Positions 18,404 through 26,097 of a DNA stretch of 64,000 bases are shown one piece after another. The translations under genes were made by a program, and so were the position numbers. A model generated the notes under the pieces. The model was given only the letters and a program-made list of their open reading frames with translations. It had not been told where the DNA came from and did not search any database. Numbering within the stretch: position 1 is the first letter of the stretch; each line of letters starts with the position of its first letter. This DNA comes from Escherichia coli (lineage in GTDB: Bacteria; Pseudomonadota; Gammaproteobacteria; Enterobacterales; Enterobacteriaceae), in the NCBI RefSeq assembly GCF_003019035.1, contig NZ_CP027447.1; one strand, written 5' to 3'.

Positions 18404-18994
18404 ATGTCTCGAATTTTTGCTTACTGTCGGATATCAACGCTGGATCAGACCATCGAAAATCAACGCCGGGAAATCGAAAGTGCAGGTTTTAAAATCAAAC
18501 CTCAGCAAATAATCGAAGAACACATTAGCGGCTCAGCAGCAACCAGTGAGCGTCCTGGTTTTAACCGGTTGCTTGCTCGCCTGAAATGTGGTGATCAATT
18601 GATTGTGACAAAACTGGATCGCCTTGGTTGTAATGCAATGGATATCAGGAAAACAGTGGAACAACTGACCGAAACAGGTATCAGAGTGCATTGCTTAGCA
18701 TTGGGGGGCATTGACCTGACCAGTCCAACAGGAAAAATGATGATGCACGTAATTTCAGCAGTCGCTGAATTTGAACGAGACCTTTTACTTGAACGCACTC
18801 ATTCCGGGATAGTAAGAGCCCGCGGCGCAGGGAAACGTTTTGGTCGACCACCTGTGTTAAATGAAGAACAGAAACAGGTGGTATTCGAACGAATTAAGTC
18901 AGGTGTAAGTATAAGTGCCATTGCCCGGGAATTCAAAACCTCGCGGCAAACCATTTTAAGAGCCAAAGCAAAACTTCAGACACCTGATATATAA
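18404..18994 (+). CDS. pinQ: Serine recombinase / DNA invertase Pin (Gin/Hin/Cin family)
   Basis: 196 aa; N-terminal catalytic serine motif YCRISTLDQ and C-terminal HTH; matches recalled PinQ/PinE. Confidence 0.9.
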
Positions 18995-19094
18995 AAAATA
19001 ATCTCGGTGTGAGATGCTTTACGTCTTCCAAGCCCCCTTCCTTGCCGTAAATGGAAAGATACATCTAATTATAGAATTTATATGTTTTACCCTA

Positions 19095-19210
19095 CGGCAG
19101 TGCTGGCCATTCAATATCCTGTGCAGTTGACGTATCAACACGGTTCAGCAATACCCGATACTTTTTCCATGCTTCCAGCAACGAGGTTTCTTCCTCCGTT
19201 GCATATACAG
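19095..19210 (-). pseudogene. 3' remnant of a tail fibre assembly gene (Tfa C-terminal domain only)
   Basis: Minus-strand frame encodes ...[36 protein letters not shown]-stop, close to the conserved Tfa C-terminus (lambda Tfa ...[33 protein letters not shown]), but the upstream part of the ORF ([12 protein letters not shown]...) is unrelated and overlaps the next gene. Confidence 0.6.
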
Positions 19211-19221
19211 CCCACCTTTTT

Positions 19222-19515
19222 TCACCCACGATTAACCAACAGCCAGACCAGCAGACACGCCACCACCGGCACAGCAAAATCCATCAGGCTTGCCACATCC
19301 CACGCGCGCGGATCAAAACCGCCCCACCACGGCATATTCATTCGCTTGCCATGCCCGAACATTTCAATCCAGCGATATTCTGCCTGGGTATGTTCACGCG
19401 CAATGAAGAACGTACAACCGGCTATCGCTCCGTAAGCCCAGTTTCCGGTAAAAAGACCAACCAGTATCTGCGCAGCCACAGCACAAAGTGCATGAAGTAA
19501 GGGGCTTATATCCAT
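19222..19515 (-). CDS. Hypothetical small membrane protein (about three TM segments) downstream of the tail fibre gene
   Basis: 97 aa; [39 protein letters not shown]... and C-terminal [13 protein letters not shown] hydrophobic segments; follows stf and the 92 aa ORF on the same strand with short spacers. Confidence 0.5.
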
Positions 19516-19527
19516 TATTTCCTCCTT

Positions 19528-19806
19528 TCAGCTCCATTCCCGAAGCGGTGTTTCCAGCTCCACGACATAATCAGAGAATACAGAAACATCAAACAAGTCA
19601 TCAAGAATGCGAATGTTGACAAAATAACCGTTATTCCGGATACAGACAGGTTCTCCCTCTTCAGTTACCCCTGTTTCTGTGTAGGTGAAACCAATTTCAT
19701 CGACTAACAGTTTATTCTGGAGGTCTTCATCTTCCTCCCAGTCAAGAGATGACAGGAAGGATTTAAACTCTCTGTTACCAGGAAATTTCAAAGTTAAATC
19801 TTTCAT
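19528..19806 (-). CDS. Hypothetical acidic small protein, translationally coupled to the tail fibre gene (possible fibre chaperone)
   Basis: 92 aa; start overlaps the stf stop (ATGA overlap at 19803-19806); acidic, no Tfa-like motifs. Confidence 0.5.
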   Translation of the reverse strand: MKDLTLKFPGNREFKSFLSSLDWEEDEDLQNKLLVDEIGFTYTETGVTEEGEPVCIRNNGYFVNIRILDDLFDVSVFSDYVVELETPLREWS

Positions 19807-21833
19807 ACTGCCTCCTTGATTTGCCTGTCATTTAATTCTTTAAACCAGACTCTGAAATTTCTGATGTGTCCAAACAAATGACGCGTTCCTGCTGCGGTCT
19901 GCCCACCAAACCGGTACGATGTTGCTGTAACTCCAAATATTTTACCATTAAGGTTTGTTGTATAATTACCATTGCATATTGCATTTACTGATAAATCAGA
20001 TTTAGCTCTCACACCCACAATGAACCTTTCTCCATCTGAGGAAATTTGTGGCTGAACCATTCCTACGTTGGCGCTTATCTTTCCTGTTGAAACAAACCCC
20101 AGCGATAAATAATTATCATCAATACTGTGCCCTCCAACATCAAATATCCTTGGCGCAACATTGGGCGGTGTACTCCAGTTCCTCCTTACTTCGCACAATA
20201 CTGTAAAAGGCCGTGTTGACAGGTTATTCGCCGAGGGGATAGTAACCACATCACTTGCGCGTGTTGTTGGCATTGTAGTTACAATAAATGACGATGCCGT
20301 ATTGCCCAGTTCAATTTGCGGCGTCGTCATGGTTAATGTTGAGTCATCATAGAATGGCTCATTACTTATTTTATTTGTCATATAAAAAGCACAGTTAACG
20401 GTATCAATGTCCGTATTAGCTGTATAAGTGGCCTCATAGTAGGTCCACTCGCCCTGTTGTTCAGCTTTGGCTGTTATAAGGGATGTATTACCGCTTACTG
20501 TTGCGATCCGGGTATCCAGATCAAGATAAGAGTCAGCAGAGAATGTATCTGTTCCACCAATAATAACTGAAACTCTTAACCTGCATCGTGCTTTAGCGCC
20601 TTTAACCCGGCACGAAAAAGTGAAACATTCACCACTTGCCAGCGGGAATCTGTCTGCTGCAACCACACCATGCACAGTATAGCCACCTGTTGTTCCCACT
20701 ATACTTTCCGTGGGTGTCACCGTGGCATAATTGAACCCCTGTTTATCAGTGCCAAATGTTTTATTCAGTGCGGAATGAACAGTCCATGAGTCTGGTTTAT
20801 TTGAGTTCCTCAGATAATTTGTCCTCTGTCCTTCAATCAATAAGCCATCGCGCTCAAATCGCGGTTCGTCAACTTCAGCAAGCTTGAGTTGGCCGGACTT
20901 ATTAATATACGTTGCTGTTGAAGCACGTTTAAACTTAACAATCTTGTCGCCTGGCATTGTTATTTCATCGTCACCAATAACAATCTTTTTATAAGATGGC
21001 GAAAAACCCGTAATCATATCCAGCGAATCGTTAAACGGTATCCACACATCAGGCAGCGGCGGCACTATATTCGCATAGGGCTCTGCAGTCACTTCCGCTG
21101 CGGCTTCTGCGCGGTCTGCCGCCTTTTCAGCTCGTGTCGCTGCCGACAGAGCCTCATCCTTTTTCTGCCCGGCCTTTGTTGCGTCTGCTGCGGCCTCCCG
21201 CGCTTTTGTGGTGGCGACTCCGGCATTTTCAGCGGCTGACTCTGCATTACGGCGGGAAGCCTCTTCACTGTCTGCGGAGGCTTCTTCTGACGCACGGGCA
21301 TTTGTCTCTGAACGTTCTGCCGCTGTTGCTGCGTTTTGTGCGGCTGTTTTTGAAGAAGCTGCCGCTTTCGCGCTGTTACCTGCATTCGTCTCTGATGTTT
21401 TCGCCGCGTTCCTGGACGATGCCGCTGCTGTTTCTGATTTCTTTGCTGCCGCTGCGCTCTGAGAGGCGGCTTCAGCGTTGCGTGCTGCTTCTTCCACCAT
21501 TGCCTCAAAACGACGCAATGCCTCCGGCATGACATCATCTTCCGTCATGGCACCGAGAAAATCATTCAGCGTACCAGGTCTGGAACCTTCATAGACGGTA
21601 ATGGTTCCGGCATGTGAAGGCGGAAAACCTTCAACCAGCAGGGTGACGCTGTACTGGCCATACTCGACATCCATGCTGTAACGCCCGGCTTCATCCGGAT
21701 TTTCAGAGGCTACCGTGTTCACCAGTACCGTGGTGCTGTTACGCTTTGCCTTCAGTTGAATAGTGCAGTTCTGTATTGGTTTTCCCGCACCATCTTTCAG
21801 CACACCTGAGATTTTTACTGCTGCCATATCCAC
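19803..21833 (-). CDS. stf: Side tail fibre protein (Stf-like): lambda-type N-terminal anchor and Ala-rich shaft, divergent C-terminal receptor-binding region
   Basis: 676 aa; N-terminus M(DM)AAVKISGVLKDGAGKPIQNCTIQLKA... resembles lambda Stf; long Ala/Ser/Glu-rich repeat region (aa 120-240); C-terminal ~430 aa unlike what I recall for lambda Stf. Confidence 0.8.
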   Translation of the reverse strand: MDMAAVKISGVLKDGAGKPIQNCTIQLKAKRNSTTVLVNTVASENPDEAGRYSMDVEYGQYSVTLLVEGFPPSHAGTITVYEGSRPGTLNDFLGAMTEDDVMPEALRRFEAMVEEAARNAEAASQSAAAAKKSETAAASSRNAAKTSETNAGNSAKAAASSKTAAQNAATAAERSETNARASEEASADSEEASRRNAESAAENAGVATTKAREAAADATKAGQKKDEALSAATRAEKAADRAEAAAEVTAEPYANIVPPLPDVWIPFNDSLDMITGFSPSYKKIVIGDDEITMPGDKIVKFKRASTATYINKSGQLKLAEVDEPRFERDGLLIEGQRTNYLRNSNKPDSWTVHSALNKTFGTDKQGFNYATVTPTESIVGTTGGYTVHGVVAADRFPLASGECFTFSCRVKGAKARCRLRVSVIIGGTDTFSADSYLDLDTRIATVSGNTSLITAKAEQQGEWTYYEATYTANTDIDTVNCAFYMTNKISNEPFYDDSTLTMTTPQIELGNTASSFIVTTMPTTRASDVVTIPSANNLSTRPFTVLCEVRRNWSTPPNVAPRIFDVGGHSIDDNYLSLGFVSTGKISANVGMVQPQISSDGERFIVGVRAKSDLSVNAICNGNYTTNLNGKIFGVTATSYRFGGQTAAGTRHLFGHIRNFRVWFKELNDRQIKEAV

Positions 21834-21835
21834 TC

Positions 21836-21866
21836 CACAAAAAAGCCCGCCTGAACCGGCGGGCTG
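21836..21866 (-). terminator. Rho-independent terminator downstream of lom
   Basis: Minus strand agcccgccggttcaggcgggct hairpin followed by a T-run. Confidence 0.5.
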
Positions 21867-21891
21867 TCATAACACTGTGTTACCTGGCTAA

Positions 21892-22491
21892 TCAGAATTT
21901 ATAACCGACACCCACGATGAAACCGTCAGTGCGCCAGTCACCACTGCCGGAACCTTCATAAGCAAGGTCAATGGCCACGGATTCGGTCGGGTTAAACTGC
22001 ACGCCAGCCCCCCACGCCAGAGACGTGTTGCTGTGGCGACCGTCATCACTTCCGGTCAGCACATCGTGCGTTTTCCCCTTGTTGTCAGTTACGCGGAGAT
22101 AATCCCCGGAGAAGGTCGACACACGGCTGTAAGCCATACCCGCCATCGCATACGCGCTGAACCATTCATTCACGCGCACAGACGGCCCCGCCATCACGCT
22201 GAACCAGCGGTTACGCACGGAATCTTCATGCCAGCGGGTATCGCTGTAATGCGTTTTTTGCTCATCTTTGGCATTGGCATAACTGAATGACGTCACCAGC
22301 CCCAGCGTGTCCGTAAACTCATAACGGTATTTCACGTTAATCCCGTTCAGATCATCGCTGCCGGGAACGTTCGTCGAGGCATGAAGATACCCCGCGCTCA
22401 GCGTGGACTGATGTTCAGACGCCCATGCAGGCGCACCGGATACGGCCAGACAAATGGCTACGGACAAAATGGCGGCATAAAGTTTACGCAT
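21892..22491 (-). CDS. lom: Outer membrane protein Lom (Ail/Lom/PagC family)
   Basis: 199 aa with signal peptide; beta-barrel ending GVGYKF as in lambda Lom. Confidence 0.9.
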   Translation of the reverse strand: MRKLYAAILSVAICLAVSGAPAWASEHQSTLSAGYLHASTNVPGSDDLNGINVKYRYEFTDTLGLVTSFSYANAKDEQKTHYSDTRWHEDSVRNRWFSVMAGPSVRVNEWFSAYAMAGMAYSRVSTFSGDYLRVTDNKGKTHDVLTGSDDGRHSNTSLAWGAGVQFNPTESVAIDLAYEGSGSGDWRTDGFIVGVGYKF

Positions 22492-22557
22492 AATTACCTC
22501 TCGCTTTTCTGCAATAAAAAAGGCGTCATTTCTGACGCCCGTTATGGGTTATAAAAT

Positions 22558-25500
22558 TCAGCTGATACTGATGCCTGCGGTGGCTTTCTTCATCACCACA
22601 ACCAGCAAATCGCTGATACTTGCTGTGGGATACCAGTCATTTACCAGCCATGCTGACACCGAAAACTCCAGCGTCATGTGGCCGTGACCAGCTGGCATAT
22701 CAATAACGCCACTGTAAATCAGCGTATTATCCAGCGCGGTACGGTTATAAATTTCAGCACCGTTTTTCCGCACTATCAGACGGCATGAGGAGTAAATATC
22801 AGTATGCTCTCTCTCATGTTTAGCACCGCTGAATGCCACCGCCGGAATAACAATCTGCCGGTCAAACGGCTGATCGTCATAAATCCTGACGGTAATGGTC
22901 CCTGATGGCCACCGCTCCGGTGCCCGGGAGTCCCGCGGGAAAGCCTTACCCACTGTTTTGACAATATCGCCTTCAATCTGGTTGGCTGACAGTTTCCCTT
23001 TAATCTGACAGTTCTCATTTATCGTAACGTTGTTGAGCGTCCCGGCGTTCGCATTCACACTGCCACTGATATCCGCATTTTTCGCCGTCAGTCGCCCGTC
23101 CGGTGTCAGGGAAAATGCCGGAGGATTACCGCCGCTGGTAATGGTGGGAGCCGTCAGATATTTCAGGAACACGTCATTCATGAATATCTGATCGCCCTGA
23201 CCAACAAACATCGGCTTTGTGTTGCCATTCGCAGGATTAATCATCGCAATCCTGTCTGCCGCCAGCAGCACCTGACTCTGCATGCCGTCGGGGGTGTTCT
23301 CAATACCGGCACCGATACCCGCAATATAAAGGCGTCCGTCCTGCATCTGCTGCAGCTTCACTGCCCACATGCTGTTCAGGTTATTATTTGTATCAACCTG
23401 AACCTTCTGTATCTGCTGGATCGCTGCACTCTGGTCTTCCAGTTTCTTATTGACGGTCTGTGTTATTTCATTGCTGACATCCGTTATGGACGTCCTGATT
23501 TCAGTCAGGTCAGGCGCAAGCTGACCGTTATCAATCTGCGTCCACAGCTCCTGAGCCAGATGGGTTTTCCCTATCTCGCCTTTGAAAAAATCCAGATAGC
23601 CGGATGCATCATCACTCGGCTGACCAACAGCCTCCACGAATGCCGATTTGCCAACGGTGTTCACACTGCGAACATAAAAATAATAATCATGGCCCGGTTT
23701 GATATTGATACTGGCGGCTATCCAGTACAGCGCCGTACCAAGATAACGCGCGCTGGTTTCAACCTGCCTGATATCAGCAATCCGTTTTTCCGAGAACCAG
23801 AACTCAAACTGTACCGTCGGATCATAAACCGCAAGATGCGGCGTGGCGGTTATCTGAAAATAGCCCGGCGTCAGCTCAATCCGCGACGGCGCTGCCGGTG
23901 CGGCAATCCGGAACGATACCGACGCCGGATCGCCCTGCTGCCCCCACGCATTTACTGCCCGGACTGTCAGCCTGTAGTTCCCCAGAGCCAGTTGTGTGAA
24001 GCGGTAAGTGGTTTCCGTCGTCCGGGCCGTGCTGACCAGCCGCTCACTGCCGTCATCCGCTGCCACGGTCAGGCGAAGCAGGAAGCTCACGCCCTTCACC
24101 ACCTTCGGTGTGTCCCATCGCGCCAGCACCTGATATTCCCCGCTGTCTGCAGTGACTTCTGCGGTCAGGTGCTGCACTGCTGGCGGCGTGACACCATTCA
24201 CCGTGCCGCTCTGGTCACCGTCAAAGTGCGCCCCGTTATCCACGATGGCTTCTTTCTCCGGTACATGCTGCACGGCAGTGATGGCATACGTACCGTCATC
24301 GTTCTCACGGATACTCACACAGCGGAACAGACGCTGGCGCAGCGTCGGCAGCTTCAGCCCCCATACGCTGTATTCAGCAACACCGTCAGGAACACGGCTC
24401 ACTTTTACCTTCACGCCGTCGGTGACGGACTGAACCTCCACGCTGACCGGATTGCCACTTCCGTCAACCAGGCTTATCAGCGTGGTACCGGAGGATGGCA
24501 GCGTGATTTCACGGTCGAGCGTCAGCGTCCGGGTCTGGCTGTTCACCGCCAGCACGCGACCACCGATGCTGATACCGGCATAGTCATCATCACAGATTTC
24601 AATGACATCGCCCGGTACATGGCGAAGCCCTTCTGCGCCCACGCTGAAGTCCACGGTCTGCGTTTCCAGCAGTTCCGTTTTAATCAGCCACAGCCCGGCG
24701 CGGTGCGCCTGCCCCCGGCTGGTACAGCCAAAAGCATCCATCTTCGTGACGTTACGACCGTAACGGGCAATGGCCTGCGTGTCCTCCACAAGCTCTGTTG
24801 CCGTTTCCCAGCCGTTATCCGGGTCAATCCAGTTCACTTCAACGGCATTATGGCGGTCCTTCAGGGCGCTGAAGCTGTAGCGGAACGGCGCGCCATCATC
24901 CGGCATCACCACATTACTGCGGTTATAGGTCCACACCTTATCCGACGGTCGGTCCTGCACGAACGTCAGCGTCTGCCCGTTCCATACCGGCATACAGCGC
25001 ATCGCCGAGCAGAAATCACTGAGCACATCCCACGCCTTGCGCTGTGTGGTCAGGTACGCATTACAGGTAATGCGCGGCTCCGTGCCGCCAAAGCCGTCCG
25101 GCACCGACTGGTCGCAGTACTGGCCGATGACATACAGCGCCCATTTATCCACATCCGCCGCACCAAGACGTTTCCCCATGCCGTAGCGCGGATGGGTCAG
25201 CATATCCCACAGACACCAGGCCATGTTGTTGCTGTATGCTGGCTTAAACGTTCCGTCCCAGATACCGCTGTATTGCCGCGTCAGCGGGTTATAGTTCGAC
25301 GGCACCTGCAGAATACGCCCGCGCAGATGATAATTACGGCTCACCTGCTGGCTGCCGAACTGCTCCGAGTCCACCTGCACGCCGACCAGTGCCGTGTTCG
25401 GGTAGCACTGTTTCACATCGATGATTTCGGTGTATGACGACCAGAGCGTTTTGTTCTGCAGCTGGTCTGTAGTGCTGTCCGGCGTCATCCTGCGCATCCG

Positions 25501-26037
25501 GATACTGAACGGGCGCGGCGGCAGGTTACCCACCACCACCGAGGCCAGATACTGTGAGGTGGTTTTGCCTTTAATGGTGATGTCTTTTTCCGTCACCCAG
25601 CCACCGTTACGTTGTATCTGAACCAGCAGGCGGACTTCCGACGGATTCCGGTCACCCTTTGAGGTGGTTTCCACCAGTGCCTGCACACCAAAGGTAAAGC
25701 GCAGACGGTCGATATTTGCAGACGTGATGGTGCGGGTTATCGGCGTGTCGTATTTCACTTCCGTACCCAGCACCGTCTCGGAGCCGGAGGATTCAAAACC
25801 CTCCGGCGGTGTCTGCTCCTGCTCACCGGCCCGGAACACCACCGTGACACCGGCGATGTTGGTATTCCCTTCGCTATCCAGCACCGGCGTACTGTTCAGC
25901 AGCACGCTTTTTAATCCATCCACCGGACCTTCAATCGGCCCTTCGCTGATGGCATCGATCACACTCAGTAACTGCGTGGATTTCAGGTTGTCCTTCGCTT
26001 CGCGCGGGGTATGCCCCTTACTGCTGCCTTTACCCAT
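22558..26037 (-). CDS. J: Tail tip / host specificity protein J
   Basis: ORF 22558..26082; from [33 protein letters not shown] the N-terminal two thirds match recalled lambda J; C-terminal ~300 aa diverge from my recollection of lambda J. Confidence 0.9.
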
Positions 26038-26097
26038 TCCTAACGCTCCATAAACGACAAAACCGCCCGGAGGCGGTTTCACATAAAATATTTTGCA

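Follow-up and report, generated by a model that had tools for sequence, protein, structure and literature searches.

Which outer-membrane receptor does a lambdoid phage use when the end of its host-specificity protein J does not resemble that of lambda? Exchangeable C-terminal receptor modules of J are a textbook case of lambdoid mosaicism, and the J gene in the 64,000-nucleotide stretch of Escherichia coli DNA analyzed here (the window) poses this question. The first-pass annotation, made from the letters alone, had proposed that the first ~800 residues follow lambda J, that the remainder is unlike it, and that the phage therefore recognizes a receptor other than LamB. In our assessment, E. 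coli GF131 carries a full-length, Qin-like lambdoid prophage, and J is quite likely its OmpC-binding mosaic tail tip. What is directly observed is how the sequence is built, to which class it belongs, where its mosaic breakpoints lie and how prevalent the class is; the choice of porin is argued from likeness to an engineered J whose receptor is known.

An intact J gene in a lambdoid prophage at the Qin locus

An intact minus-strand open reading frame at 22558-26082, counted from an upstream GTG, encloses the J gene (Table 1). The RefSeq start is the ATG at 26037 (MGKGSSKGH...), and the 1159-residue product ends in ...[15 protein letters not shown]. J proteins consist of a hub (Phage-tail_3), an FNIII-A domain, two Ig/FNIII domains, a tail-tip fiber and a C-terminal Ig-like receptor-binding domain (RBD), and the window protein carries the full set of J-family Pfam domains, all above their curated cut-offs. 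RefSeq annotation of the identical locus, compared with lambda, gives the operon order H-M-L-K-I-J followed by lom and stf, with J and all adjoining tail genes annotated as intact. The protein is a full member of the J family despite its divergent end. A 625-residue open reading frame also lies antisense within J (23560-25437, plus strand); the codon composition of J most likely accounts for it, and nothing points to a gene.

Table 1. Features of the J locus, with positions in the window and, where applicable, in the J protein.
Feature	Window position	Strand	J residues	Basis
J gene (tail tip attachment / host specificity protein; RefSeq WP_047664591)	22558..26037	-	1159 aa + stop	ORF list, translation, RefSeq annotation
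Segment 1, lambda-like hub and FNIII/Ig domains	23623..26037	-	1-805	aa identity, DNA identity
Segment 2, non-lambda alpha-helical shaft and upper central straight fiber	23176..23622	-	806-954	aa and DNA identity
28 residues extra versus lambda, alpha-helical shaft	23440..23532	-	836-856 and 860-866	MAFFT
Segment 3, conserved lower central straight fiber	22990..23175	-	955-1016	aa identity to comparators
Segment 4, RBD of the 1A2 / VT1-Sakai / PhiR55_1 class	22561..22989	-	1017-1159	aa identity, Pfam, PDB matches
PF24801			86-207	Pfam match
PF13550			330-496	Pfam match
PF24421			610-714	Pfam match
PF24489			716-818	Pfam match
PF09327, tail-tip fiber domain			872-1000	Pfam match
PF12421 (Ig_GpJ_C), receptor-binding domain	22561-22953	-	1029-1159	Pfam E = 3e-37
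Terminator-like hairpin and T-run directly after the J stop	22521..22540	-		
lom (Ail/Lom outer-membrane protein), between J and stf	21892..22491	-		Pfam PF06316 E = 7e-125; annotation
Second terminator-like hairpin, after lom	21865-21844	-		
stf side tail fiber, lambda-like N-terminus, non-lambda distal part	19803..21827	-		sequence comparison

Over the 10 kb around J, the window matches the chromosome of E. coli GF131 (NZ_CP172134; chicken meat, Switzerland) at 100% identity. J lies within a lambdoid prophage of ~45 kb at the Qin locus, flanked by a truncated ydfJ and by rspB, at about 17.1-62.2 kb of the window. By annotation, the prophage encodes an integrase, an excisionase, repressor/cro, Q, lysis, terminase, portal and capsid proteins and a complete lambda-type tail operon. 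Whereas Qin in K-12 is a remnant, the prophage of the window retains a complete head, tail, lysis, regulatory and integration set, and it seems to be a full-length relative of the element whose decay produced K-12 Qin.

This setting bears on whether there is a receptor to be found at all. Were J a relic in a defective prophage, with no working tail tip, the receptor question would be moot, and both the locus, which is defective in K-12, and the pseudogenes within the prophage (the tail-fiber-assembly fragment, a truncated methyltransferase and ydfB) lend some weight to such a view. We nevertheless regard it as rather unlikely, given that J is an uninterrupted frame of 1159 residues with an RBD identical to that of a viable phage, that the adjoining head, tail, lysis, integrase, repressor and Q genes carry no pseudogene flags, and that the J of Stx1 prophage VT1-Sakai, by contrast, is visibly frameshifted. 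A J belonging to a full-length prophage remains the preferred reading.

The genes downstream of J are themselves mosaic in character. The lom gene is bracketed by the two terminator-like hairpins (21844-22540, minus strand), a moron-like arrangement. Stf matches lambda Stf over its N-terminal ~157 residues (73% identity), and its distal part has nothing in common with the lambda protein, in agreement with an earlier remark that the side fiber had been swapped. The last 425 residues of Stf are 98.8% identical to those of the 1H12 and Lambda_ev phages and ~72% identical to the JenP2 and Es2 fibers, and there is a weak, sub-threshold match to a carbohydrate-binding module (PF02018). Phage 1H12 has no lom between J and stf and carries an A8-like RBD; compared with it, the window looks, from the alignments, like the product of an exchange of an RBD-plus-lom cassette. 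Downstream of stf, positions 18404-19515 hold two hypothetical open reading frames (92 and 97 residues), a tail-fiber-assembly pseudogene fragment and a pinQ invertase, which together look like the remains of an invertible tail-fiber switching region in which a complete alternative fiber end is no longer flanked.

Segments of J and their divergence from lambda

Overall, the window J is 84% identical to lambda J by BLASTP (NC_001416, P03749; 1132 residues, ending ...KKQALGISVV), an average that conceals abrupt changes along the protein. These were resolved in a MAFFT alignment of J from lambda, PhiR55_1, 1H12, lambda-h434, Stx2a_WGPS6 and VT1-Sakai. Segment 1 is 98% identical at the amino-acid level to lambda, PhiR55_1, 1H12 and lambda-h434, and 76% identical to WGPS6; DNA identity to lambda runs at 91-100% as far as window position ~23608 and falls below 70% from ~23607. 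In the domain nomenclature of PMC11101478, the lambda structure paper from which the terms alpha-helical shaft, beta-prism central straight fiber and Ig-like RBD are taken, the region beyond this step comprises all three of these elements.

Segment 2 is 52-57% identical to lambda and 434, both of which carry a different, shorter version of it, as compared with 97-100% to PhiR55_1, 1H12 and WGPS6 and 91-99% to VT1-Sakai. Relative to lambda, residues 806-870 are 57% identical with 28 residues more, and residues 871-954 are 52% identical. The DNA of residues 811-990, spanning the shaft and upper fiber in common with WGPS6, is 99-100% identical to that phage. The extra shaft stretch opens with a break at G838/P842, after which hydrophobic residues recur at 844, 847, 851, 854, 858, 862 and 866 in an amphipathic 3-4 pattern that includes a stutter; no single heptad register spans the whole stretch, and the 28 additional residues would be compatible with added helical turns.

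Segment 3 is a 62-residue island that is 87% identical to lambda and 85-90% identical to all comparators. It contains residue 992 (lambda residue 964), the junction of the published gpJ chimeras discussed below. Toward its end, the DNA of residues 991-1020 is only ~80% identical to PhiR55_1, 1H12, lambda, WGPS6 and VT1-Sakai, and the protein encoded by this tract matches A8 gpJ. Segment 4 is 99% identical to PhiR55_1, 97% to VT1-Sakai, 67% to 1H12, 45% to 434 and 43% to both WGPS6 and lambda. It differs from the LamB-specific lambda type in protein (43%) and in DNA (~50-68% identity), from the A8 type (67% to 1H12; 54 of the last 168 residues differ from A8) and from the 434 type (43-45% identity with 12 gap positions).

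The sharp steps in the identity profile mark recombination joints and not drift. Judged by these alignments, the J gene is a fine-scale recombinant of segments common to 1H12, WGPS6, A8-like and PhiR55_1/VT1-Sakai phages. Several of the initial claims fare well against this anatomy: the ~800 lambda-like residues correspond to residues 1-805, the C-termini of both J proteins had been given correctly (...ALGISVV for lambda and ...[15 protein letters not shown] for the window), and alignment with lambda J and with the J proteins of phages of known receptor gives a C-terminus that is not essentially identical to lambda's. The divergent part had been placed in ~300 residues at 22558-23500; the divergence is real, but it begins at ~23622 (residue 806) and extends over ~354 residues. 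The description of this part as unlike canonical lambda J goes too far: the unlikeness is not uniform, the two proteins being homologous throughout, with the same Pfam domains, the same fold and order of domains, and the conserved 62-residue island.

Among solved structures, the C-terminal 353 residues of J find their best match in an entry named 'A8 gpJ 713' (PDB 9wca/9wcb, E = 8e-126). Next come the structures of lambda J, free and LamB-bound (8xcj, 8xck, 8iyk). A literature search for a paper on the A8 gpJ structure (9wca) found none. Lambda J has the same domain order and gene neighborhood as the window; the shaft of the window protein is the longer, by 28 residues, its upper fiber and RBD differ to the extent given above, and lambda binds LamB.

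One of the close natural relatives is the J of PhiR55_1 (PV340571; Laub lab temperate phage panel), an isolated plaque-forming phage propagated on E. coli C. This J is also 1159 residues long, is 98-99% identical over most segments and 90% identical over residues 955-1016, and over the Pfam RBD it is identical to the window at every residue. Six amino-acid differences fall in residues 993-1025, and DNA identity over residues 991-1020 is only ~81%. PhiR55_1 shares the J-lom-stf gene order of the window, with a different Stf (2358 nt) and a tape measure protein of a different clade. A Nature 2026 paper counts PhiR55_1 among the phages that SNIPE protects against modestly and independently of ManYZ.

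The receptor-binding domain and its likeness to OmpC-dependent chimeras

A direct link between this class of RBD and a receptor comes from engineered lambda particles. Brödel et al. (Nature 2024, PMC11338833) swapped natural C-termini into lambda gpJ after residue 964, and two of the resulting chimeras, 1A2 and A8, deliver DNA into lamB-deleted cells in an OmpC-dependent manner, 1A2 having been selected on lamB-deleted cells. The 1A2 protein uses the OmpC of EDL933 and not that of K-12 (MG1655), whereas A8 uses both; jointly, the two cover 21 of 23 OmpC variants (PMC11338833). A later preprint (10.1101/2025.02.28.640725) confirmed the use of O157 OmpC by 1A2 and targeted O157 strains.

The sequence of 1A2 is available as DNA in the supplement of PMC11338833, here in an OCR copy with lost bases in which 6 of 168 codons are unreadable. 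Plain tblastn gave broken fragments of low identity, and proteins were instead aligned to the 1A2 and A8 DNA by frameshift-tolerant dynamic programming. Aligned in this way, the 168 swapped residues of 1A2 equal the C-terminus of VT1-Sakai (Sp15) J save for 3 positions in garbled stretches, the donor C-terminus of 1A2 being equal to that of this Stx1 prophage protein. The VT1-Sakai J gene itself (AP000400, 1971-5443) is annotated as two overlapping truncated open reading frames and is thus frameshifted; it still has the C-terminal sequence used in the functional chimera.

Compared with 1A2, the window J shows 10 real differences in the 168 swapped residues (~94% identity). Six of these lie in the lower fiber, at 993, 998, 1011-1013 and 1025, where the window (residues 993-1025) is A8-like and not 1A2-like; over residues 992-1029 its lower fiber is identical to that of A8 gpJ (9wca/9wcb) save for one residue. 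The remaining four fall in the 131-residue Pfam RBD, which is 97% identical: I1052, R1076, D1134 and S1157 of the window are V, K, N and T in 1A2 (I1052V, R1076K, D1134N, S1157T). Both proteins belong to the same RBD class and share the C-terminal motif ...[12 protein letters not shown](S/T)IS. Because the region sufficient to target OmpC in the chimera is ~94% identical to 1A2, and the RBD 97% identical, OmpC rather than LamB is most likely the receptor of the window J. The receptor was determined by experiment for 1A2, and for the window J it is predicted from likeness in sequence. The suggestion of a receptor other than LamB is accordingly supported, with an RBD at 43% identity to lambda's that falls in the class of an OmpC-dependent chimera.

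Other phages help to place this class. OmpC is also the receptor of A8 gpJ (PMC11338833), which, unlike 1A2, accepts the K-12 protein. The J proteins of 1H12, Lambda_ev and ev017 are A8-related, and 1H12 has its shaft, fiber and Stf in common with the window; its RBD has indels in the variable loops. For J of the 434 type (lambda h434, Stx2a_WGPS6, phi330), OmpC use has been reported (PMC12502783); with different loop lengths, the 434-type RBD forms a separate class that uses the same porin. Two candidate comparators were rejected: phi330 and WGPS6, for which OmpC use is shown experimentally, are not direct homologues, having a 434-type RBD that is only 43% identical, and phage 21 is not natively OmpC-specific, its native receptor being LamB and its OmpC use evolving by mutation (PMC11336670).

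It is conceivable that the few substitutions relative to 1A2 have shifted the specificity of the RBD away from OmpC and toward a different outer-membrane protein, such as OmpF or some other trimeric porin. The four RBD differences could have such an effect, since as few as one to four substitutions in J can add or change porin use in lambda and phage 21 (PMC11336670), and R1076K and D1134N lie within stretches that are hypervariable in the class. All four changes are conservative, however, in a domain 97% identical to the tested 1A2, and the A8 class uses OmpC even at only 67% identity; we judge this reading improbable. That the C-terminus is merely a drifted lambda-type domain which still uses LamB is already disfavored and scarcely credible: its fold and domain order do match lambda J, but the RBD is far from lambda's, the 1A2 chimera of the same class came from selection on cells deleted for lamB and needs OmpC, and the identity profile shows sharp recombination breakpoints in place of gradual drift.

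In the reading that we prefer, with OmpC as the probable receptor, the tail tip unites four parts: a lambda-type hub and FNIII region (residues 1-805), a widespread non-lambda shaft and upper beta-prism fiber (806-954) that is 28 residues longer than in lambda, a universally conserved lower fiber (955-1016) and an Ig-like C-terminal RBD of the 1A2/VT1-Sakai/PhiR55_1 class (1017-1159). How such a tip is triggered most likely follows the lambda J-LamB structures, in which the RBD inserts four bottom loops into the porin (PMC11101478). By this analogy, the distal loops of the trimeric RBD would dock into trimeric OmpC instead of LamB, docking would spread the bases of the RBDs as in lambda, and the resulting twist would pass up the beta-prism and the helical shaft to open the tail tip and allow DNA ejection. 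The 1A2 chimera carries the lambda shaft, in contrast to the longer natural shaft of the window, through which the signal would have to be relayed here.

Prevalence and variation of the class

This class of RBD is common. With a 432-nt RBD query, megablast matches occur in 3,498 of 5,426 complete E. coli genomes, often in several copies per genome, and 1,714 records match at 95% identity or more. The equivalent piece of lambda finds matches in 98 of the 5,426, all at 99% or above; the five records listed among them are all laboratory strains. An RBD at least 95% identical is also present in 54 phage records, including Stx-converting and PPompW prophages of O157. The window RBD class is the mainstream natural form, and the lambda RBD is rare in sequenced E. 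coli. The J variant was seen correctly by the first-pass annotation, but it is already known, characterized and very common.

Variation within the class, derived from a homologue set of mostly short J fragments, is concentrated at residues 1075-1081, 1118-1121 and 1131-1136. These stretches coincide by position with the indel-rich parts of the between-class alignment, and from their placement they are probably the receptor-contact loops. Two of the four RBD differences from 1A2, R1076K and D1134N, fall in two of the variable stretches, and it is for this reason possible, though we offer it tentatively, that the allele found in the window and PhiR55_1 recognizes a different set of OmpC alleles than 1A2 does, and that the class forms a series of natural alleles that follows the diversity of OmpC in E. 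coli. The ompC gene of the GF131 host was sought at two loci by K-12 synteny; the searches landed among yeh/yoh genes and then in the ompX/dps region, and ompC was not found at either. In the same chromosome (NZ_CP172134, 1.46-1.61 Mb), the yoh/yeh region (~2.2 Mb in K-12) lies less than ~70 kb from ybhF-rhlE-dinG-ompX (~0.85 Mb in K-12), which indicates that the GF131 chromosome carries a large rearrangement relative to K-12.

The RBD module of the window has thus already been characterized and put to use in engineered lambda particles, as gpJ 1A2. It is the class of the RBD, and not overall similarity of J, that predicts the receptor, and annotation of this prophage should read probable OmpC user. 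Because the lambda RBD is found in 98 of 5,426 genomes as against 3,498 for the OmpC-type class, 'canonical' lambda serves poorly as a reference for prophages in nature.
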